A DNA stretch of 64,000 nucleotides from a virus. Its lineage: Duplodnaviria; Caudoviricetes. Positions 20,680-40,722 of the stretch are shown here, piece after piece. Position 1 is the stretch's first letter. Each line of letters begins with the position of its first letter. Made by a program: the position numbers and the translations under genes. The DNA is taken from positions 10,501-74,500 of IMG/VR virus record IMGVR_UViG_3300036783_000170. The stretch is one strand, 5' to 3'. The notes beneath the pieces were generated by a model that was not told where the DNA came from, made no database searches, and saw only the letters and a list, made by a program, of their open reading frames with translations.

Positions 20680-21417
20680 TTGCGTCATGACGCGGCACGA
20701 CCGAAGAAGCTGGTCGCCGAGGACCAGGAGTCCACGGCGGCGGAGCCGATGAGAGGCAGCCAGCCGTCCGTGCGCCGCAACCCCTCCACAGATCAGAAGA
20801 AGACGCGCCGGCAGATGCAGCGATCCCAGCAGAGGACCGCCATCAGCGTCTGCGCGGCCTGTCAGGCGTCGTCAGCCGGACCCTGCCAGTCATGCGGCTG
20901 CACCCTCGTCACGAGGGCGACCGTGCTCCCTACCAACGCGGAGCGACTGCAGTCGGGCCACGTCCTGCGGCTGCCGTCCGGCCAACGGGTCAAGGTCAAG
21001 GGCGTCAGGCCGCACGAGAACAGCGGCGGCCACCTGTACCTGGACACCGACATAGGCACCAGCGTGGTGGACCGCAAGGCCCAGTTCCACGTCATGCAGG
21101 GCGACGCCGCCGAGCGCGGCGCCCCGTTCAAGCAGCCGACCAACCGCGAGACCCCCGGCAACTTCAACACCAACCTGGCCGAGTCCACGGAGAAGCCCGA
21201 GGCCGCCCCGGCGGCCGGCAAGTGCCCCAACTGCGGCAAGGGTCCGCTGGTCAACCACGGGGGCAAGATGGTGTGCCGGAACTGCGGCTACACCAGCTCC
21301 GGCGGCGACTCCGACTTCGGCGACGCAGGGTACCGACGCCCCACCGCCTTCCTGCACGACGGCATGACGGCCGTAGCCCGGCGAGCCCAGACGCTCGTGG
21401 AGAGGACAGAACAGTGA
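20680..21417 (+). CDS. First head-module protein with two Zn ribbons
   Basis: CAAC..CQSCG, central beta-rich segment, CPNCG..CRNCG; TTG start 9 nt after GGAGG (track start 20671). Confidence 0.65.
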   Translation: MRHDAARPKKLVAEDQESTAAEPMRGSQPSVRRNPSTDQKKTRRQMQRSQQRTAISVCAACQASSAGPCQSCGCTLVTRATVLPTNAERLQSGHVLRLPSGQRVKVKGVRPHENSGGHLYLDTDIGTSVVDRKAQFHVMQGDAAERGAPFKQPTNRETPGNFNTNLAESTEKPEAAPAAGKCPNCGKGPLVNHGGKMVCRNCGYTSSGGDSDFGDAGYRRPTAFLHDGMTAVARRAQTLVERTEQ

Positions 21418-23780
21418 CCACCCGAGCAGACATCTTGCGGTCCATCAACGCGGCCCGCTCCGGCGAGGAGCAGCGGCTAGCGGTGCTCGCCCTGGACGCC
21501 TACGACCGGCAGGTCGTCGCGCGCCAGCGGTCCGACCGAGAGCTGGACCTGACCAACCGCGTCGTCCAGGACCGGATGGTCGCGGTCGCCACGCACGAGC
21601 GGTCCACCATCCAGACCGACTGGCTCGGCGACGTGACCGCCTCGGCCGGACCGGACGCCGAGCAGAAGGTGATGGCCGAGGCCGCCCTCTGGTACCGGGG
21701 CACGCCGGAGATGGTGCGCCAGGACGCCGAGGAGTTCACCATCCAGGCGCAGGGCAAGGCCCGGCGCGTCGCCAGCGCGTACGGCGAGTCGGCCGAGGCG
21801 CTGGAGCGGTCGTTCCTGAACTACGTCGCGTTCCTGAGCCGGCAGGCAGCCAGCGGGCTGGACCAGGTCCAGCAGCTGGTGGACTCGCACGAGGACCCGA
21901 AGCGGACCCCGCTGCCGACCGAGGTCTTCGACACCTTCCAGCCCGAGGTCGACCCGGTCAACGCGGGCGTCACCGGCACCGAGACCTCCGAGCGCGCCCC
22001 GCTGATGCAGGAGATCATGCAGGGCGACGCGTACGGCGAGGGACCGGAGAAGCCGGGAGGGCACTCCACCAGCTTCGACGGCTCCGGCGGATACTCCGAG
22101 GTGCCCGCCGACGCCGCCGACGCGCACCGGACGGCGGCGGTCAACCAGCTGCTCACCCTCGATGACTACCGGCTGCAGTTCGCCGCCGAGGCCCGGAGGG
22201 CGGACCCAAAAGAAGGTAGCTCCCACGAGGGGCGCATCGACCACGAGACCAGCAGCGACGGGCCCCGGATCCCGAGCCTGCCCGGCGCCCCGTCGGACTC
22301 GAAGGCCCGCGAGTACCAGGACGAGTTCGAGGAGAACACGAAGAGGCTGCGGGACGAGTTCGAGGAGAACGAGCGCTCGCGCAAGCAGGGCGCGTCCGGG
22401 CTGGACGAGGTCCAGCAGGTCGTGAACCCGCACGAGGACCCCGCCCCGACGCCGATGCCGACGGACGTGGCCTTCCCGTGGGTGGACGGGCAGGACGAGT
22501 ACGAGCAGGACCACCCCGGCCAGAAGGCCGCCGTGGCCCGGCACCGGCTGGTGGCCTCGATCCTGAGCAAGGAGCCGGCCTCCGTCACTCGTGCTGAGCT
22601 GCGGGAAGTGCTCTCGTTCGCCAAGGACGTGCGCGGCGGCGAGTACGCCAGCACGATGGCGGCGAAGCTGGCCAGCGCCGACACCGGCCCGAGCACCTGG
22701 CACCAGGCCGTCTACCACCTCGGGGTGGCTGATCCTGAGGTCGCGCGTACTGCAGTCAAGAAGACCGCAGACCAGTGGACCGCGCCGCACGAGGTCCCCG
22801 GCGGCCAGGTCGCCAACTCGCCGGCCACCACGCCGGAGTCGTCGAAGGGCACGTACGCGGACGGGTACGCGGAGGGCGGCGAGGACGCCAGGTCCGGCGA
22901 GGCCCCCACCTTCGCGGACGCGTCCAGCCACGCTCCGGAGTTCGTCCAGGGCCACACCAAGGGCTACCAGGACGCCAAGCAGACCGTCGAGAAGGGCCTG
23001 CCCAAGGACGAGCCGGCCTCGATGGGCGGCCAGGCCGCGCAGACCCCCGGCGCCGACGCCACCAGTAACCCGTACGCCGACCCCGGCGGCCGGTCGTACG
23101 CGAGGAAGATCTCCAGCCTCGTCAGCACCACGGCGGCCCGGCAGGACGCGGACTTCCTCAAGGGCATGCGGTACGCCCAGAAGTGGCGCCCAGGGCGTCC
23201 GCTGGTGACGCAGGGCTCCGCCGAGTTCGAGGGCGGCCTGTACGCGGGCATCAGCGACAACGCCGACAACCAGTACGCCTGGGTCGCGGAGCACCAGCGG
23301 CTCGCCCGGCGGGACCAGCGGTTCGCGGACCGGATCAGTCGGCACGCGGAGTACAGCGAGACGGTGGCTACCGACCTGCGGGCCATGGTCGTCGGGCCGT
23401 ACCTGCGGCTGGAGGCGGCCACGTCCACCGACCTGGACACCACGGCGCCGAACACCAGCCCCAGCCCGGTCGGGGACACCCCGATCAACGGGCCCGGCAA
23501 GGTCCCCCCGCTGGCTGGCCAGGAGGACCCGGCCGCCGCTGGTGGACCTGCGCCATATAATTCAGCTCCTCCCTACGGCAAACCTGTGGTTCCGCAGGGA
23601 GAGATGGCTGCCGGTACAGGGTCAAATACGACCATCAATACCACCATAGGTGGTCCGATGGATCAGGCCGCTGAAGAACGTCGACGCATGCGCCCTACCA
23701 CCTTGGCCTTTAGGCATCGAGTACAAGCGTCTCTGGTGCAGGACCGTCAGGAGAGGGTGAATGCCAGCTCTCGCCCTTGA
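21414..23780 (+). CDS. Large acidic head-associated protein (788 aa) with an internal repeat and an internal slippery site
   Basis: GTG start overlapping the upstream TGA; repeat xQxASGLDxVQQxVxxHEDP twice; GAC CCA AAA G at 22203. Confidence 0.75.
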   Translation: MTTRADILRSINAARSGEEQRLAVLALDAYDRQVVARQRSDRELDLTNRVVQDRMVAVATHERSTIQTDWLGDVTASAGPDAEQKVMAEAALWYRGTPEMVRQDAEEFTIQAQGKARRVASAYGESAEALERSFLNYVAFLSRQAASGLDQVQQLVDSHEDPKRTPLPTEVFDTFQPEVDPVNAGVTGTETSERAPLMQEIMQGDAYGEGPEKPGGHSTSFDGSGGYSEVPADAADAHRTAAVNQLLTLDDYRLQFAAEARRADPKEGSSHEGRIDHETSSDGPRIPSLPGAPSDSKAREYQDEFEENTKRLRDEFEENERSRKQGASGLDEVQQVVNPHEDPAPTPMPTDVAFPWVDGQDEYEQDHPGQKAAVARHRLVASILSKEPASVTRAELREVLSFAKDVRGGEYASTMAAKLASADTGPSTWHQAVYHLGVADPEVARTAVKKTADQWTAPHEVPGGQVANSPATTPESSKGTYADGYAEGGEDARSGEAPTFADASSHAPEFVQGHTKGYQDAKQTVEKGLPKDEPASMGGQAAQTPGADATSNPYADPGGRSYARKISSLVSTTAARQDADFLKGMRYAQKWRPGRPLVTQGSAEFEGGLYAGISDNADNQYAWVAEHQRLARRDQRFADRISRHAEYSETVATDLRAMVVGPYLRLEAATSTDLDTTAPNTSPSPVGDTPINGPGKVPPLAGQEDPAAAGGPAPYNSAPPYGKPVVPQGEMAAGTGSNTTINTTIGGPMDQAAEERRRMRPTTLAFRHRVQASLVQDRQERVNASSRP

Positions 23781-24264
23781 TCACTCGCGTCATTTGCGTG
23801 GGACTGATGCCGTACTCTCTGGCCAGTCCTCGATAGGTGCCCGTGCCTTCGATGAATCTCCTTCGGACTTCGTGAACCTGATCCCAGGTGAGGATGGCTC
23901 GGCCGTGGTCTTCGCCGCGACGCAGGTGTCCTCCGTCTCGCCCCCGCTCGACTCTGTCCCTGACGTTTTGAGCGTTGTTGCCGAGATAGAGGTGGGACAG
24001 ATTTACGCAAGGTCGGTTATCACACCGATGGAGAACGTGCTCTTCGTCAGTGATCGCTGGAGCAACCATGATGCGGTAGATCCAGCGATGGGCTCGTACG
24101 ACTCGGCGCCGGTTACGGCTATGAGGGTTAGGTGCCCCTCCATGAAACTGCCCGTACCCCTTGGCGTCGGTATGACTTGTCCAAGTCCAGCAGGCGTCTT
24201 CGCCTCTCGACTTGTCGACCTTGATCCAGAAGCGGGCGAGAAGATCTTCAACGGTTGCCTCCAT
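23710..24264 (-). mobile_element. Free-standing HNH homing endonuclease
   Basis: RFWIKVDKS...CWTW...KGYGQF...RAHRWIY...VLHRCDNRPCVNLSHLYLGNNAQNVRDR...KGESW; lower GC than neighbours; antisense. Confidence 0.88.
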
Positions 24265-24293
24265 GGGTGCAACCTTACCTGGGGGAGGACCAC

Positions 24294-24836
24294 ATGTCTG
24301 ATGAGCTGAACGACCTGATGTGGGTGGAGGCCACGCGAGACCTGGAGTCCGAGGCGAGCGAGATGTCCGCCGAGCGGGCCAGGATCGCCAGCTCCTCGCT
24401 GTGGCCGTTCCTGGCCGCCGCCCGCTCCGAGCCCGAGTTCGACGGCCGCCTCAGCGTCGCCGCCGAGCACCTTGAGGCCGTCGCCGTCGAGACCGGCCAC
24501 CCCGTCGAGGCGCTGGCCGCCGACCTGCGGGGGCAGTGGCGGCTGCTCGCGGAGGCTCGCGGCTCCGACCCGGTCGACCACGAGGGGCACGACTACGACC
24601 ACGACGACGAGGACCCCGAGGGCGACGAGGAGGACGCGCAGAACGGCGCCGAGTGGGACAAGCACATGGGCTACAGCCCGTACGACCACTACGCGTCGCT
24701 GCGCACCGCCTTGGAGGAGGGCGTCGACCCGCTCTCCTGGGTGGAGGACGAGGCGGAGTACGGCTCCGGAGCCGAGGAGGTAGGCGGCCACCAGAGCGGC
24801 GCCACCGCGTCCCGGGACGCCGACCCAAAAGCCTGA
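24294..24836 (+). CDS. Acidic head-module protein (180 aa); probable N-terminal part of a -1 frameshift fusion
   Basis: SD GGAGG; ends GAC CCA AAA GCC TGA. Confidence 0.75.
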   Translation: MSDELNDLMWVEATRDLESEASEMSAERARIASSSLWPFLAAARSEPEFDGRLSVAAEHLEAVAVETGHPVEALAADLRGQWRLLAEARGSDPVDHEGHDYDHDDEDPEGDEEDAQNGAEWDKHMGYSPYDHYASLRTALEEGVDPLSWVEDEAEYGSGAEEVGGHQSGATASRDADPKA

Positions 24837-25909
24837 GCCCCGTGCAGGGGCAGGGTCCGGTATCGGACACCAACGTCCCCCAGGACCCAGGCGGGTCCGG
24901 CGCGGGGATGGCCCCGATGCCCGACTCGGGCGTGCCTGGCGGGGGCGCCCCAAGCAGCGGCGGGGGCAGCGACTTCGACCCCGCGTCCCTCGCGGGCGCG
25001 AACGCCAACACGACCCCCGAGGGCACCCAGTCCGACATGACGGGCCGGATGCTCAACTCCGCCATGCTGGTGGCCGCCGCGAACCCCGAGCTGGACGACG
25101 AGGCGTGCGCGACCCTCGCGGTCCTGGCCGGCCGCCGGCTGGCCGCGAACCCGCTGGGGTACGGCCACCGTCCGTCCGTGGAGGGCCCGCTCACGCAGCG
25201 GGTCAAGAACCGGGTCAACGAGCTGGTCAGCGGCGAGTACCAGAGGCGACACCAGCCGCGCCCGCAGGGCCGCCCGAGCGGGCAGCCCGGCGCGGGCAAG
25301 GGCGTCCGCCCTACCCCGCGCCCGGCCCCGAGCGTGGGCGAGCAGCTGCTGAACCTCGTCCCCCTCAAGCCGCACGAGCGCAGGCTGGTGGACGGCATCC
25401 GGGGGCTCATCAAGAAGCACCGCGACCGGGCGGGCAACCCTCCTCCTCCGCACCACAACGCCCCTCCGGTACCGGCCCCGCCGTGGCTGGACGAGGACGA
25501 CCAGGAGGACGTCGACCGGCCCGACGAGCAGCCCCGGCCGGCCGCGCCTGGGGTGCTACCTCCGGGGGCTAGCCCCCACGACTTGAACGGTGACGACGAG
25601 GGCTCGTCCGAGGGCGAGTCCAGCGGCAGCAAGGCCGCCGTGCGGCACCAGGCCGACAACCCGCTGGACTTCGGCAACCGGGCGCCGGTGCCGGAGGGCC
25701 CGCTCGAGCAGAAGGCGGTCGACTCCATCAACGAGGCGGAGGACGCGGTCCCGATGCCCGGCGACACCTCGAAGGTACCGGGCATGGGGGGCGGCAAGGG
25801 CTCCGGAGGCAAGGCGCCGGAGGGCGCTGGTGCCGGCGCGGGCGAGGCGGCCGGCGGCGAGGCGGCCCTGGGCGAGGTGGGCGAGCTGGCCCCGATGATC
25901 GCGGTCTGA
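24830..25909 (+). CDS. Pro/Gly/acidic-rich -1-frame extension of 24294-24836
   Basis: GC3-rich frame open through the slippery heptamer; no convincing SD for GTG 24842 or the downstream ATGs. Confidence 0.65.
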   Translation, partial: SLSPVQGQGPVSDTNVPQDPGGSGAGMAPMPDSGVPGGGAPSSGGGSDFDPASLAGANANTTPEGTQSDMTGRMLNSAMLVAAANPELDDEACATLAVLAGRRLAANPLGYGHRPSVEGPLTQRVKNRVNELVSGEYQRRHQPRPQGRPSGQPGAGKGVRPTPRPAPSVGEQLLNLVPLKPHERRLVDGIRGLIKKHRDRAGNPPPPHHNAPPVPAPPWLDEDDQEDVDRPDEQPRPAAPGVLPPGASPHDLNGDDEGSSEGESSGSKAAVRHQADNPLDFGNRAPVPEGPLEQKAVDSINEAEDAVPMPGDTSKVPGMGGGKGSGGKAPEGAGAGAGEAAGGEAALGEVGELAPMIAV

Positions 25910-25911
25910 GC

Positions 25912-26382
25912 GTGGTCAACGACGGCGACGAGGTCTTCTACTCAGGCTACGAGCGCGCGGGGGCGCTGGTGGGCGACCACGGCCAGGTGCTGGCCTCCAG
26001 CGGGTCCGCAGCGCACGTGAAGTGGAGCACCGGCGCCCGCGCCGGCTCGGTGAGCCTGGAGCACCAGGACGACCTGGAGCCGCGCCGCGCCACCCGGTCG
26101 CTGCTGGCCGACAGCCTGGAGTACGGGGAGCTGCAGGTGGCCGCCGCCCGTAGCCGGTACGACGAGGCCGGCCCGCAGGGCGTGCTCTCGATGCTGGCGG
26201 AGGACGGCCACCTGATGGCCTTCGCGGAGATCGCGGAGGAGGCGCTGGCGATGGTGGCGTATCGGGTGCGGCACGACCCGTCGGTGCGGGCCGCTACGGC
26301 GTCCCTGGACGACGACGAGGGCGAGCAGGTGGTGAGGGCCGCGTCGGCGGCCCTCATCTACGACGCGTTCAGCCTAGAGTGA
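25912..26382 (+). CDS. Hypothetical head-module protein
   Basis: 156-aa ORF directly following, GC3-rich. Confidence 0.65.
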   Translation: MVNDGDEVFYSGYERAGALVGDHGQVLASSGSAAHVKWSTGARAGSVSLEHQDDLEPRRATRSLLADSLEYGELQVAAARSRYDEAGPQGVLSMLAEDGHLMAFAEIAEEALAMVAYRVRHDPSVRAATASLDDDEGEQVVRAASAALIYDAFSLE

Positions 26383-26728: not shown

Positions 26729-26918
26729 TGGCTAGTCCTCCGAGACATCCACTGGAGCAGTAGGGCGACCTCGACGTACTCGACGGCCCAGTCCTCGTCG
26801 TACCAGCGCTCGACCACGCGGCCTCCTGGTCTTAGGTCCTACGTCCAGTAGTCGACGTAGCCCCACGGCGGATGAGTGTGACCTGCCTCACCGTTTTAAA
26901 CGATCTGCCACTTACCTA

Positions 26919-26953
26919 CTGCCCGCCCGGTGCCGAGCCCGGCGTAATAGGCA
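26919..26953 (+). promoter_or_regulatory. Putative late promoter
   Basis: CTGCCC ... TAATAGGCAGGAGG, 26-nt offset. Confidence 0.6.
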
Positions 26954-26964
26954 GGAGGTGGGGC

Positions 26965-28252
26965 ATGCCGAAGTACCCCGTCAACGACCGTAAGTGCGAG
27001 GACTGCGGCGAGCGCGTCCCGCCGGGCACGCCACGCCGGACCTCGGACGGCCAGCTCGTGTGCTCGAAGTGCTTCACGCGCCGGTCCGCCATGACCCTCT
27101 ACCGCCAGGCGGCCGAGCAGTACCCGACCTCGGAGCCGGTGGCCCCCTCGCGCCCTGACTGGCGCCAGGATGCCGCCAGGGCCCGCACCGCCGCGCTCGT
27201 CAAGAGGGCGCACGATTCGGGCAATCAGGTAGATATCTACCACTGTCCGTTCTGCGGCAGCGGTCAGGTCGTGGGTAGATCTGACCGGACCGTCGAGTGC
27301 ACGTTCTGCAACGCCGTGTTCACCGTCCAGGTCCAGCCGATGTACTCCGGCGTCCCGCAGACCATCGACGGCGAGTCCGTCGAGGAGCCCGGCGCCCCGG
27401 GGATGGATGGCGAGCCAGACGTGGCCGGGGACGAGATGCTCCCCGAGGAGCAGGGCACCATGAACGGCCAGCTGCCCCCCGAGGAGGACGCGGACCAGGA
27501 CGGCGAGCCCGACGACGAGGAGGGCGACGACGAGCCCGCGTTCCTGAAGGGCTCGATGCTGCGGACCGCCAACGGCACCCCCGTGCCGATCCCCGACCTG
27601 ATCAACCACATGGCGCTGCTCCAGGCCACCGACGAGGAGCGGCCGGCGATCCTGGCCCGCATCCGCGAGGAGCGCGCACGATGACCCGGTACCGCGCGGC
27701 CGTAGACATGCGCCTGCCTGGCCAGTCCGTCAGCCGCGACGACGTGCTGGACATGGACACCTCGACCGCCATCGCCCGCAGGGACGTGGAGGGCATGGTC
27801 TCTCGCGGGCTCCTGGTGGCCGTGGAGGACGAGCAGGACCAGCCACCGGAGCAGGAGCCCGACTCAGCGGCCGAGGAGCGCATGTCGACTCCTCGGGGCC
27901 GCAAGAGGGGGCGCTGATGAGCGCGCCCCCGTCGATGCTCGCCCTCGTCCGCGACGGGAAGATCGACATCCCGTTCCTGTGCGTGGAGCGGGAGTGCGAG
28001 GGCAGCCGCTACCACACGCCGACGCCGCTGGAGGTCGCGCCGTACCTGTTCCACGTGGACGACATCGCCGCGTACTACGGCCCGTCCACGAGCGACGCGA
28101 CCTGGCTATGCGGCACCTGCGCGGCCAACCTCCGCGTCTTCTTCGGGCTGATGCGCGGCACCGACGGCAGCATGCCCTGGGAGGTCCAGCGGGAGTTCGG
28201 CAACGGCATCCGCCGGATCGGCAAGATGATGTGGAGGGCAGCTGATGCCTGA
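26965..28252 (+). CDS. Three pre-portal ORFs (26965-27684 Zn-ribbon/acidic, 27681-27917, 27917-28252 Cys motif)
   Basis: CEDCG..CSKC and CPFCGS..CTFCN; coupled starts. Confidence 0.7.
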
Positions 28253-34536: not shown

Positions 34537-34567
34537 CTGCCGCCACGTATCCGAGCCCGAGGAATGG
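34537..34567 (+). promoter_or_regulatory. Putative late promoter
   Basis: CTGCCG ... GAATGGG, 25-nt offset. Confidence 0.55.
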
Positions 34568-34590
34568 GTAAGGACACGGAGGTGGGCGGG

Positions 34591-36798
34591 ATGCTGCGTA
34601 AGTTCGCGACCGCGATGGTGCTCGATAAGTTCGTGGTGCCAGCGGACGCCGGGGCCGAGGCCATGCGGCGGATCGCGCACCGGCACGAGTTCCAGTACGA
34701 CGTGAGGCCGGGCTACCTCTATGTCCGTTCTCGTATGATTAGTTCCAGATGTAACGACAACTACGACGAGTTCCCCGCAGAAGAGATCAAGAAGGCGTAC
34801 CGGACCTTCGTCGGCAAGCCCGTCTTCGTCAACCACAACAACGAGGACCACCGGCGCGCCCGGGGCGTGATCATCGACGCCGCCCTGCACGACGACCGGA
34901 ACCCCGACGGCACCCCCGACCTGTGGGTCGAGGGGCTGATGGAGATCGACGCCGTCCGGTTCCCGATGCTGGCCAAGGCCATCGTCGCCGGCCACGTGGA
35001 CCGCACCTCGATGGGCACCGACGTGGCGTTCTCCGTCTGCTCGATCTGCAACAACAAGGCCACCACGCCGCTGGAGTACTGCCGGCACATCCCCGCGCAG
35101 AAGGGGCGCCGGATCTTCCGCGCCAACCCGAAGACCGGCAAGAGGGTCGGCGTGCTGGTCCGGGAGACCTGCTACGGGCTCTCATTCTTCGAGAACAGCC
35201 TGCTGGTCGAGCCCCCGGCGGACCCGACGGCGTTCTTCACGGGCGTCGACGCGCGCGGGCTGAGCGCCCACGCCGCCCGGCACCCGGAGGCGCCGAAGGG
35301 CAAGCCGACCCCTAAGCGTCAGACCCCCGCCGCGCGCCGGCAGGAGGGCGAGCGGCTCGCGTCCCTGCGCGCCGTCGTCGCCGAGGGCGAGGAGGCTGGG
35401 CCGCCGCCGAACCACCGGCCGCAGGGCGACCCCGTGGTCCGCGAGGAGGCCGCCTGCGCGACCTGCGGCGGCGCGATCTTCCACTCAAAGAACGGCGACG
35501 TGTGGATCCACTCCGAGCAGACCGGCGGCGGGATGCCGCACCAGGCCAACCCCGGCGAGGAGGGGTACGACGGCGCCAGCGGCCAGATGGTCCCGCAGAA
35601 CAAGGCGTACGAGAGCCACTCGACCAGCAAGGAGTCGCACCTCTCCGACGGCGCGCACAGCGAGAAGGAGATGGACGACTACAACCGTGGCCGCCGGGTG
35701 GACCTGGAGGACCCGATCGACCTCAAGAGCCACCTGATGGAGACCCACGGCTGGGCTCCGGAGGACTTCCACCAGCACGCCATGGACCGCCACCACCCGG
35801 CGCTCGGGGACACCGACGGCGCGAGCCGGCCGTACACCAGCACCGAGGTCCAGCACATCCACGCGTTCGAGCACACCCCGGCCGGCGGCGGCCACGACTT
35901 CCCGGACGCCCGGGTGGAGGACGGCATGCACAGGCACGCGTCGCTGGTGGCCGAGGCCAAGCCGAAGTACGAGGACCCGGGCGAGCACCCGGCGATGAAG
36001 GCGCTCGGCCTGCACCCCGGCAACGTCGTCGGCCACTGGGACATGGCCACCGACGAGGAGAAGGGCCAGGGCAAGAACTGGTACGAGGACGCCCACCACA
36101 TCGCCAAGGCGATCGCGGGCGGCGACGCGCACAAGGGCGCGGGGGTGCTGGCCGCGTACTCCCCGCAGACCGCGTGGCCGGCGAACATGTTCAACGCGTC
36201 CCGGTCGTTCCGGGAGGGCAAGGCGATCGGCGGCAAGGGCTCCGGCGTGATGGCTTCTGGCCAGATGCGCGACGCCGCGCAGCGGATCATGAACGGCGAG
36301 CGGCACGAGGACGTATTCAAGGGCAACAAGATCAGCGACTTCGCGCACCTGATCGAGCACGGCGGCAACAAGGACGACAACGACCCGAAGGTCGTCGTCG
36401 ACCGACACGCGCTGTCGGTGGCCGCTGGCCGTCGGCTCCCGGAGACCGAGACGGGCCCCGCGCAGGCTGCGATCGCGAACCGCCACTACTACCAGCACGC
36501 GGTGGACACCTACCACCAGGCCGCGAAGCACATCAACGAGCGCGACGGCCGCACGGGCGAGGACCAGGTGAAGCCGCACGAGGTGCAGGCCGTCACCTGG
36601 CTGGCCCGGCAGCGGATGAACCAGAAGGAGGACCGCGACTCCGGTACCGCGATGGGCAAGGGCCGCGCGAGCGGCTTCGAGAAGGCGCACCAGCAGTGGC
36701 TGGAGCATGCCCGGAACCACTACGACGGGTTGGAAGGCAACATGCACATGGCCCTGCTGCGCGCGCCCAAGGAGTCCCAAAGGCGCACAGGTGCCTAG
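34591..36798 (+). CDS. Probable capsid maturation protease fused to a His-rich linker and an HhH-GPD-like (DUF7178-like) domain
   Basis: N-term YLYVRSRMISSRCNDNYDEFP..EI..AYRTFVGKPVFVNHNN...TSMG...CSIC...CYG..FFENS.LVEPPADP.A; C-term WYEDA...AGVLAAYSP..AW..N...GNKISDF...VVVDRHA...QAVTW; ATG 34591 has SD GGAGG. Confidence 0.7.
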   Translation: MLRKFATAMVLDKFVVPADAGAEAMRRIAHRHEFQYDVRPGYLYVRSRMISSRCNDNYDEFPAEEIKKAYRTFVGKPVFVNHNNEDHRRARGVIIDAALHDDRNPDGTPDLWVEGLMEIDAVRFPMLAKAIVAGHVDRTSMGTDVAFSVCSICNNKATTPLEYCRHIPAQKGRRIFRANPKTGKRVGVLVRETCYGLSFFENSLLVEPPADPTAFFTGVDARGLSAHAARHPEAPKGKPTPKRQTPAARRQEGERLASLRAVVAEGEEAGPPPNHRPQGDPVVREEAACATCGGAIFHSKNGDVWIHSEQTGGGMPHQANPGEEGYDGASGQMVPQNKAYESHSTSKESHLSDGAHSEKEMDDYNRGRRVDLEDPIDLKSHLMETHGWAPEDFHQHAMDRHHPALGDTDGASRPYTSTEVQHIHAFEHTPAGGGHDFPDARVEDGMHRHASLVAEAKPKYEDPGEHPAMKALGLHPGNVVGHWDMATDEEKGQGKNWYEDAHHIAKAIAGGDAHKGAGVLAAYSPQTAWPANMFNASRSFREGKAIGGKGSGVMASGQMRDAAQRIMNGERHEDVFKGNKISDFAHLIEHGGNKDDNDPKVVVDRHALSVAAGRRLPETETGPAQAAIANRHYYQHAVDTYHQAAKHINERDGRTGEDQVKPHEVQAVTWLARQRMNQKEDRDSGTAMGKGRASGFEKAHQQWLEHARNHYDGLEGNMHMALLRAPKESQRRTGA

Positions 36799-39741: not shown

Positions 39742-40722
39742 ATGAGCACTGCGCTCGCCCCCAGCGGCCTGTACGGCAAGGTCGCCATCAAGAGCGACGA
39801 CTACGTCGCCGCACTGGAGCGGAAGCGGGCCTCGGGCCCGCTGGACCACACCCAGAAGGTCCGTCGCCTGGCGATGGTCCTCTCCGACCAGGTCGACGGT
39901 ATCCGCCGGCTCGGCGTCGGCATGGTCGGCCCGATCCAGCTGAAGCTGCGCTACCAGGGCATCACCCGCAACGTGCTGGTCGAGGACCCGGTCACCCCGG
40001 GCACCCCGGTCCAGTACGACGTGTGGGACGACCTGGGCCAGGCGTACCTCATGTCCAGCACCGACGGCGAGGTCCGCGTGACCCCGTTCGAGGGCAAGCG
40101 CGTGGACGTGAACTTCTTCCGGATCGCCTCGCAGCCCACGATCCGCAAGGAGGACCTGTACTACCTCCGGATCAACGCGGTGGAGCAGGTCCAGGACGAG
40201 ACCAAGCAGTCGATCCTCAAGCAGGAGGACAACCGGCTGCTGCAGATCCTGCAGGCCGCGATCACCGACTACGCCAGCCGGCCGGACCACGTGGTCACCC
40301 CGAACCACACGATCACCGAGGCGTCGGGCTACCTGACCCCCGGCTCGCTGTACTCGGCGGTCGCGATGACGGACCTGCACGAGCTGCAGTCGGCGCGGAT
40401 CCTGATCAACCCGTTCGACTTCCGGGACATGTACCGCTGGGATATCAACCAGACCGGCTGGGCCTTCAAGGACCGGGTCGTCGCGGGTGAGACCATCACC
40501 AGCTTCGGCGAGTTCCAGATCCAGCGGTCGATCATCGTCCCGCAGAACAAGATCTTCTTGACCCCGGAGCCGAACTTCCTCGGTGTCTTCCCGGTCCTGT
40601 ACTCCCTGGACGTGGAGGAGAACCACCAGGTCGCCAGCTTCATGAAGGGCTGGGTCTTCGATGAGATGGTCAATATGACCGTTTTGAACCCCAGGGGCCT
40701 GGCAGTGATTAACAAGGTTTAG
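39742..40722 (+). CDS. Major capsid protein (Bxz1/cluster C-like)
   Basis: MVGPIQLKLRYQGITRNVLVED..TPG.PVQYDV.DDLGQAY...GEVRVTPFEGKR...KEDLYYLR...WDINQTGWAFKD...FLGVFPVLYSLDVEE...KGWV.DE...LNPRG. Confidence 0.92.
   Translation: MSTALAPSGLYGKVAIKSDDYVAALERKRASGPLDHTQKVRRLAMVLSDQVDGIRRLGVGMVGPIQLKLRYQGITRNVLVEDPVTPGTPVQYDVWDDLGQAYLMSSTDGEVRVTPFEGKRVDVNFFRIASQPTIRKEDLYYLRINAVEQVQDETKQSILKQEDNRLLQILQAAITDYASRPDHVVTPNHTITEASGYLTPGSLYSAVAMTDLHELQSARILINPFDFRDMYRWDINQTGWAFKDRVVAGETITSFGEFQIQRSIIVPQNKIFLTPEPNFLGVFPVLYSLDVEENHQVASFMKGWVFDEMVNMTVLNPRGLAVINKV

Follow-up and report, generated by a model that had tools for sequence, protein, structure and literature searches.

Frameshifts of the -1 type have been described in the head (orf5, gp5A/5B) and tail (orf10) genes of Lactobacillus phage A2 by García et al. 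(2004) and Rodríguez et al. (2005), as cited in passages of PMC5009743 and PMC5221750, and in these passages the minority product is described as gaining an immunoglobulin-like C-terminal extension. We have analyzed a closely similar element, a candidate -1 slip cassette built on the heptamer C CCA AAA, in a 64,000-nucleotide (nt) stretch of phage DNA (positions 10,501 to 74,500 of IMG/VR record IMGVR_UViG_3300036783_000170), which is referred to below as the window. The cassette stands at the 3' end of an open reading frame (ORF) designated ORF1, and is followed in the -1 frame by a longer one, ORF2. An earlier note on the window had named CCCAAAA as the -1 slippery site of head and tail genes of A2, and in the A2 record (NC_004112) we found ORF5 to end AC-C-CCA-AAA-GCG-TAA and ORF10 to end GC-C-CCA-AAA-GCG-TAG, the slip position being read from the sequence. 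The design of the window cassette is identical, with C CCA AAA followed by one alanine codon (GCN) and a zero-frame stop. In other respects the systems differ: the A2 genes encode the major head and major tail proteins, whereas ORF1 and ORF2 are neither; the window extension is twice the length of the zero-frame product and is predicted to be mostly disordered; and the A2 host is a low-G+C firmicute, whereas the host of the window phage is a high-G+C actinobacterium.

The tail assembly chaperone G/GT frameshift of tailed phages was reportedly described by Xu et al. in 2004. This frameshift is annotated routinely in actinophages (PMC10885494). Like the candidate in the window, it gives rise to a longer fusion by a -1 slip close to the 3' end of a short ORF, at a site conserved across diverged phages. 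In contrast, it lies between the major tail and tape-measure genes, whereas the window site lies upstream of the portal gene and belongs to an unrelated family. Identity of the window ORFs with the tail chaperone is ruled out by their position before the portal gene and by the lack of a family match. In the dnaX system, a slip yields the short form of the product (tau/gamma). A similar arrangement can be seen in several relatives of the window locus, namely loci L011 and L021 and the genes of phages Flabslab (gp83), Myrna (gp87), Phabba and Skog, in which a heptamer is in frame and a -1 stop follows 4-6 codons on; the wiring of the window is the opposite, a slip leading there to the long form, and the proteins are unrelated. 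Finally, conserved frameshifting at A_AAA_AAR in Mg-chelatase-like AAA+/VWA genes was described by Antonov et al. (2013), according to a summary passage in PMC5009743. We found the 16-nt cassette of the window, together with a hairpin, at AAA_5/VWA junctions in G+C-rich metagenome contigs, although the published site is A_AAA_AAR and the proteins are unrelated to those of the window.

The slip cassette and its proposed mode of action

From sequence comparisons, we consider it highly probable that a programmed -1 ribosomal frameshift joins ORF1 and ORF2. The features concerned are as follows, in positions of the window and with protein lengths in amino acids (aa); L numbers in the text designate loci, and P numbers designate proteins.

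24294..24836, + strand: ORF1, zero frame, 180 aa, starting at ATG 24294; homologues P0003-P0008
24824..24830, + strand: slippery heptamer C CCA AAA (X XXY YYZ), in frame with ORF1, phased with ATG 24294
24831..24836, + strand: spacer GCC TGA, 6 nt, with TGA 24834-36 as the zero-frame stop; invariant across close relatives
24837..24851, + strand: hairpin GCCCC-GTGCA-GGGGC, 5-bp G+C stem and 5-nt loop, 6 nt past the heptamer
24830..25909, + strand: -1 frame continuation (ORF2), 359 codons plus stop; in-frame homology to P0045, P0052, P0018 and P0100
24855..24868, + strand: second small hairpin GUCCG-GUAU-CGGAC, in the window only, not conserved

Reading of the sequence bore out the arrangement that the earlier note had proposed. 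ORF1 ends GAC (24822-24), CCA (24825-27), AAA (24828-30), GCC (24831-33) and TGA (24834-36), with the hairpin 6 nt beyond the heptamer. From 24476, the -1 frame runs open to its stop at 25907-09, and the fusion of about 538 aa is read as 179 + 359 = 538 aa, with the predicted junction ...ADPK/SLSPVQ..., that is, ...ADPK-SLSPVQGQGPVSDTNVPQ... (also given as ...ADPK-SLSPVQGQGPVSD...). We envisage that most ribosomes on ORF1 would stop at TGA 24834-36 and yield the 180-aa protein. A fraction would pause with tRNA-Pro on CCA, tRNA-Lys on AAA and the hairpin (24837-51) at the mRNA entrance; both tRNAs could then re-pair one base back, on CCC and AAA, and reading would resume at AGC 24830 in the -1 frame and run to 25909, giving a 538-aa protein. 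Both products would share the N-terminal helical domain and the acidic linker, and the C-terminal modules would be present in the long form only. The actual shift by ribosomes, its efficiency (and hence the fixed ratio of products put forward in the earlier note) and its biological role are matters that we infer.

The heptamer consists of codons that are rare in the window, as had been claimed: with a G+C content at third codon positions (GC3) of 0.93, AAA makes up 6 of 185 lysine codons (3%) and CCA makes up 26 of 529 proline codons (5%), and CCT is also rare (34/529). In-frame heptamers of the form XXXYYYZ, where Y is A or T, number three per 7302 codons (17 genes). CCCAAAA occurs twice in the 64 kb versus 0.68 expected, which is not significant by count alone, and our argument therefore rests on comparison with relatives. 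A 47-nt fold starting at the heptamer gave z = -2.45, and 4 of 200 shuffled sequences folded equally well. The downstream ORF had been said to have no good Shine-Dalgarno (SD) sequence, and we observed that GTG 24842, which lies within the hairpin loop, is without one (free energy of pairing, dG, -1.9). No promoter or terminator was found near the site by consensus scan, and the hairpin is accordingly unsupported as a terminator. The second small hairpin is weakened in L002 and L006 and is probably outside the signal. In summary, the locus exhibits four of the features by which canonical -1 signals are recognized: a phased heptamer, a downstream RNA structure at a spacing of about 5-9 nt, a long constrained -1 ORF without a conserved start, and conservation or in-frame fusion in homologues.

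Conservation of the cassette and alternative explanations

We searched 5.8 billion proteins for homologues of ORF1 and then compared the contigs that encode them. Five diverged homologues of 179-195 aa, all metagenomic, were obtained, with identities of 84, 68, 63, 60 and 41%, and all five contigs carry CCCAAAAGCCTGAGCCCCG-nn-CAGGGGC. The 28-nt element CCCAAAAGCCTGAGCCCCGnnCAGGGGC, in which 26 of 28 columns are invariant versus a locus mean of 28.5%, is the top-scoring segment in the alignment of the 1.6-kb two-ORF locus. The earlier note had looked to retention of CCCAAAA and of the -1 frame relation in homologues, and both were observed: C CCA AAA is invariant in the window, L002, L005, L006, L007, L008 and L015, and ORF2 is in the -1 frame in all of the split relatives (L002, L005, L006, L007, L012, L014, L015, L016 and P0008). 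The contrary pattern that it had named, of homologues with an independent start and without the heptamer, was not the outcome, as no start codon is conserved and the heptamer is kept.

Two aspects of this conservation bear on the nature of the element. First, the stem is invariant at four positions that are synonymous in the -1 frame, whereas elsewhere about 80% of third positions vary (five sequences). The loop codon is GTG, GTC or GTA, all of which encode valine in the -1 frame, and is GAG in L007. That synonymous stem sites are fixed while the loop varies suggests selection on the hairpin itself. Second, the segment from the hairpin to the first downstream ATG has the character of -1 coding sequence. 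Its variable sites number 4, 4 and 11 at codon positions 1, 2 and 3, respectively; an insertion of 6 nt in this interval of L005 preserves the frame; and PVSDTNVPQ, a conserved peptide, is encoded to the 5' side of every ATG. In L005, moreover, the -1 frame has a stop 39 nt before the site, with no ATG, GTG or TTG between. This coding signature upstream of the ATGs argues for translation of the -1 frame starting at the heptamer, and no initiation site is conserved.

It should be noted that several observations weigh against a programmed frameshift. The hairpin is short (5 bp) and weak for a stimulator, and the stability of longer folds, in 70-nt segments, did not differ significantly from that of shuffled sequences (z from -0.5 to -1.5). 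No compensatory change in the stem was seen within the close clade, since the stem never varies there. A pair of ATG codons, 84 and 93 nt downstream, is common to four close relatives and is preceded by moderately G-rich sequence (dG -4 to -8.6), and some independent initiation of a shorter ORF2 product is therefore possible. Also, D-P-K and R-P-F could be peptide motifs, in which case part of the nucleotide conservation could be protein constraint.

The ATG pair enters into the alternative that survives best, which we nevertheless regard as improbable. It holds that ORF1 and ORF2 are separate genes, that ORF2 has its own start through coupling or re-initiation at GTG 24842 or at ATG 24908/24917, and that the conserved element is a coupling or regulatory hairpin. 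Gene callers do list the two ORFs separately, and the GTG is found 5 nt past the stop in the window and in L005; yet it is replaced in L002 and L006 by GTC or GTA, which are no start codons, and has been lost from L007 as well. Likewise, the ATG pair, for all its G-rich 5' sequence, is not present in L007, and the called starts of ORF2 vary between loci. The coding-type variation, the in-frame insertion and PVSDTNVPQ all lie 5' of the ATGs, and orthologues in which the two ORFs are fused hold this same stretch within the protein.

Transcriptional slippage, in which RNA polymerase would add or drop an A in the A4 run and so create the mixture of products at the mRNA level, appears very improbable. 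An A-run is indeed present and the products of such slippage would look identical at the protein level, but productive transcriptional slippage normally needs homopolymer runs of about 7 or more, and four residues fall short of this. The alternative CCCTTTC sites of other family members hold T3 only, and the features conserved here are the full X XXY YYZ heptamer, its zero-frame phasing and a correctly spaced hairpin. We assign a similarly slight chance to the absence of any recoding, with D-P-K-A or R-P-F serving as a conserved motif at the C-terminus or for processing (such as a protease site after [RK]-x-A) and nucleotide identity simply following. In its favor, RDA/DPK and RRA/DPK motifs recur in the gene upstream of ORF1, P-F is kept by fused forms of the protein, and [KR][KR]TA motifs are repeated in relatives. 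A constraint on peptide sequence, however, does not explain why rare codons alone are used (CCA AAA, or CCT in 11 of 11 P-F sites), nor does it account for the synonymous invariance of the stem and the conserved -1 coding frame. Finally, a gene broken by frameshift mutation or by assembly error, as might be imagined because ORF1 and ORF2 form one gene in P0045 and P0052, is effectively refuted by sequence comparison, as independent assemblies that differ in sample and source (Logan, ENA and JGI) repeat the architecture, both halves are under purifying selection, and the break is always at a canonical heptamer.

The reading of the locus as a programmed frameshift is made more plausible by recurrence of the cassette in G+C-rich genomes. 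A metagenome search for the 16-nt cassette gave at least 120 matches, most of them by chance; among the matches listed, about 25 combined long ORFs in the zero and -1 frames with a hairpin immediately past the TGA. The cassette CCCAAAAGCCTGA with a G+C hairpin joins unrelated pairs of ORFs in these cases, including a MoxR-type AAA_5 with a VWA/CoxE protein, a short ORF with an NB-ARC-TPR STAND protein, and an ORF with a GH46 domain, and the stems differ in sequence between groups. It appears that the cassette is a recurrent solution in such genomes. The loci are:

L104:4094-6021, - strand; also L038, L048, L102, L077, L094, L105, L112 and L136: cassette with hairpin
L108:913-3296: cassette with hairpin
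L096:1747-2936, - strand: cassette with hairpin

Natural fusions, the wider family and cultured actinophages

In-frame fused orthologues, which the earlier note had named as a further possible outcome, were found in P0045 (421 aa) and P0052 (416 aa), where the ORF1 and ORF2 parts are in one frame. Both proteins contain the N-terminal domain (N-domain) of ORF1, an EEG-DPL-W motif, VSDTNVPQDP, the helical module and a hydrophobic C-terminal tail. The gene order around them is as in the window: the fusion gene follows one for a protein of about 750-860 aa and precedes one for a protein of about 160 aa, with a long gene at the portal position further on. In the fused orthologues L011 and L021, C CCT TTC is still in frame, and a -1 stop follows 6 codons later in L011 and 4 codons later in L021, so that a slip there would truncate the protein rather than extend it; the downstream stem in L011 is strong (z = -4.3).

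We used ORF1 in an exhaustive HMMER search at E <= 1e-3 and found that 154 cluster representatives share its N-domain. This domain (about 90 aa, helical, W..EA.RD...WPFLA...R) is always N-terminal, in proteins that range from 95 to 1453 aa. In a set of 155 sequences, made up of the window ORF1 with cluster representatives and members, 33 have P-K or P-F at the C-terminus with 0-2 residues beyond, and all 33 lack the ORF2 module; 22 of the 155 carry that module in frame. For four members of the P-F/P-K type (L012, L014, L015 and L016) the DNA was checked. L012 and L014 have C CCT TTC with a stop after 0-1 codons, L016 has C CCT TTC TAA with an 8-bp G+C hairpin 4 nt on, and L015 has C CCA AAA GCC TGA with a different 9-bp stem. 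The hairpins of these distant members are unrelated in sequence, and the spacers in relatives are 4-7 nt. The -1 frame is open in all four, and in those whose contigs extend far enough (L012, L014 and L015) recognizable ORF2-type sequence is reached. In all 11 of the P-F sites that we examined, the proline codon is CCT. Searches of other collections yielded little: the locus, ORF1, ORF2, P0045 and P0048 had no match by blastn/tblastn against 50,697 phage records, and in viral contigs single-protein queries gave no related loci, a degenerate VSDTNVPQ pattern gave 0 matches, and the exact-cassette pattern gave one, in an unrelated AT-rich contig.

The family profile did match the N-termini of genes of cultured phages, with domain E values of 2e-6 to 3e-3, which are weaker than those of the metagenomic members. 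In five phages the gene upstream of the portal gene has C CCT TTC:

Flabslab gp83 (Bixzunavirus), L023:5015-8356: ASRRPFV, codon 761; -1 slip leads to a stop after 4 codons
Myrna gp87, L010:4520-8410: GSRRPFV, codon 870; -1 slip leads to a stop after 4 codons
Phabba gp243, L025:3971-7423: GSRRPFV, codon 777; -1 slip leads to a stop after 4 codons
Skog gp150, L026:4489-7377: DPRPFV, codon 531; -1 slip leads to a stop after 4 codons
E3 gp68/gp69 (Rhodococcus phage), L018:3218-5208: ADRPFVRRR*, codon 519; gp69 continues the -1 frame, 145 codons open

In E3, the site is 4 codons before the stop of gp68, and a slip would carry translation on from gp68 into gp69. Four of the five genes contain no in-frame XXXYYYZ heptamer (Y = A or T) other than C CCT TTC, and the fifth, Flabslab gp83, contains one more, C CCA AAG, at codon 1081. 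Profile matches without a P-F site were seen in Finch gp12 and in Stormageddon gp8, and in the latter phage C CCT TTT is present instead in the adjacent gp9. No frameshift was annotated at this site in the six cultured-phage records that we inspected. The earlier note had considered a head-gene recoding event to be unfamiliar in Bxz1-like phages; in fact, the homologues of Bxz1-like Flabslab and of Myrna carry the related in-frame C-CCT-TTC, unannotated and in a truncating arrangement. These comparisons make it likely that the site serves as a slip site throughout the family, a conclusion that is less secure than that for the window's own site, because R-P-F could also be a conserved peptide motif.

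The gene upstream of ORF1 has a second in-frame C CCA AAA at 22205-22211 (gene 21414-23780), in the context RRA-DPK, and the -1 frame stops 4 codons later. At codon 265, L002, L005 and L006 keep both this site and the -1 TAG, and the fused-type loci L011 and L021 have G GGA AAA in the upstream gene with a -1 stop after 3 codons. No convincing hairpin follows 22205-22211 in the window (z = +0.3). Possibly, this is a truncating frameshift, and there may then be two adjacent recoded genes.

A broader scheme, which we put forward as a serious possibility without favoring it, would place one ancient slip site in a portal-proximal family of proteins of variable length in Bxz1/Myrna/E3-like actinobacterial myoviruses and their many uncultured relatives. 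The site would have been rewired repeatedly, either to extend a protein (the window, E3 gp68-69) or to truncate it (Flabslab gp83, Myrna gp87, Skog gp150 and the fused metagenomic forms), giving short and long isoforms in every phage from one N-terminal targeting domain, with the upstream gene likewise recoded and the N-domain possibly acting as a capsid-targeting or scaffold-binding handle for variable cargo. The mechanism proposed here is canonical; the gene family is new for recoding and is widespread in actinophages. If the frameshift is real, ORF1 and ORF2 are to be annotated as one recoded gene, and the correction would extend to the family of 154 cluster representatives. It would probably also concern the gene that precedes the portal gene in more than 200 sequenced mycobacteriophages of cluster C and in their relatives from Gordonia and Rhodococcus. 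The frameshift would then represent a recoding event beyond the tail-chaperone gene in actinophages and an unusually clear natural series, with one slip site serving either to extend or to truncate a protein, and cultured, genetically tractable systems would be at hand in the Bxz1-like phages, Myrna (M. smegmatis) and E3 (R. equi).

A different frame change was seen in E3 gp70 (L018:5208-8367), which is annotated as a structural protein and lies two genes before the portal. It is recorded as a pseudogene joined from two pieces, and the change looks like +1, not -1.

Protein features, setting and neighboring genes

ORF1 begins with an N-terminal helical domain of about 90 aa, for which the AlphaFold2 (AF2) model of residues 1-90 has a predicted local distance difference test (pLDDT) score above 93, and continues through an acidic linker to the C-terminal end ...RDA-DPKA*. 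Its ATG at 24294 has a strong SD sequence (dG -10.9). ORF2 contains the motif PVSDTNVPQ, a helical module NPxL...PLxYGxR..GPxTxxVK (twice), Pro/Gly-rich disorder and a hydrophobic C-terminal helix. Within ORF2, a 21-nt stretch at 25660-25680, which encodes the second NPLDFGNR repeat, is invariant in all five lineages. No other invariant run in the locus is as long, and either codon bias or an element at the nucleotide level could be the reason.

Pfam and PHROG gave no match for ORF1, ORF2 and neighbors, hence no capsid or scaffold family. The ORF1 model had no Foldseek match in the PDB at E <= 0.001, the VIA wide comparison gave Z <= 6.0 with generic helical bundles only, the ESM Atlas had no usable match, and hhalign of the family against Finch gp13 gave nothing. 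The head-module label which the earlier note had attached to these ORFs is thus not established: the ORFs lie about 3.4 kb upstream of the portal gene, and recognizable head genes lie further downstream. The AF2 model of a natural fusion has the N-domain, a helical hairpin and a C-terminal helix, with long low-confidence acidic or Pro/Gly-rich stretches between, and the ORF1/ORF2 protein is on this model largely disordered. Short motifs that fit [RK]-x-[TA]-A, such as KKTA, RKTA, SRRA and EARTA, are repeated at the domain boundaries of the ORF1/ORF2 family, namely after the N-domain, before DPK and before VSDTNVP, and are numerous in Finch gp12 (L017:4413-6812). They could be prohead-protease cleavage sites. 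The C-terminal parts are diverse among members of the family: Skog gp150 carries a methyltransferase annotation, and in P0018 a match to a DnaJ-type zinc finger falls below the Pfam cut-off. As a tentative picture, on balance doubtful, we suggest a largely disordered, protease-processed protein that would act in the prohead or be packaged into it, the slip setting the ratio of short to long forms. The indications for a prohead or packaged protein are circumstantial, namely the proximity of the gene to that of the portal, the disorder interspersed with short helices in the model, and the repeated [RK]-x-[TA]-A motifs.

The source of the window is a 74.5-kb IMG/VR contig with an estimated completeness of about 50%, and in the two contig sets listed, the runs with window DNA were from soil metagenomes only. 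The phage is a soil actinobacterial phage. No tRNA genes were found in the window. The neighboring genes are as follows.

21414..23780, + strand: upstream neighbor, about 788 aa, no family match, contains the second in-frame C CCA AAA
23710..24264, - strand: HNH homing-endonuclease gene between the upstream neighbor and ORF1; Pfam HNH_3, 2.2e-6
25912..26382, + strand: downstream neighbor, 156 aa, conserved; same position in L002, L005, L006, L007, L011, L012, L015 and L021
28245..30479, + strand: portal gene, synteny anchor; phrog_2833, 4.8e-140
34564-36798: prohead protease, downstream of the portal gene
39742-40722: major head protein, phrog_2522, downstream of the portal gene

The portal protein is about 40% identical to those of Rhodococcus phages Finch and E3, Gordonia phages Stormageddon and Skog, and Mycobacterium phages Myrna, Phabba and the Bixzunavirus group. 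The HNH gene is missing from L002, L005 and L006, where the upstream gene and ORF1 overlap by 8 nt, and a plus-strand ORF at 23761-24309 is probably spurious. In the 17 genes examined, the sole in-frame XXXYYYZ heptamer besides the two C CCA AAA sites is T TTA AAC at 26895-26901, eight codons into a zinc-finger/Lar-like ORF (gene 26872-27684), and the true start of this gene may simply be further downstream.

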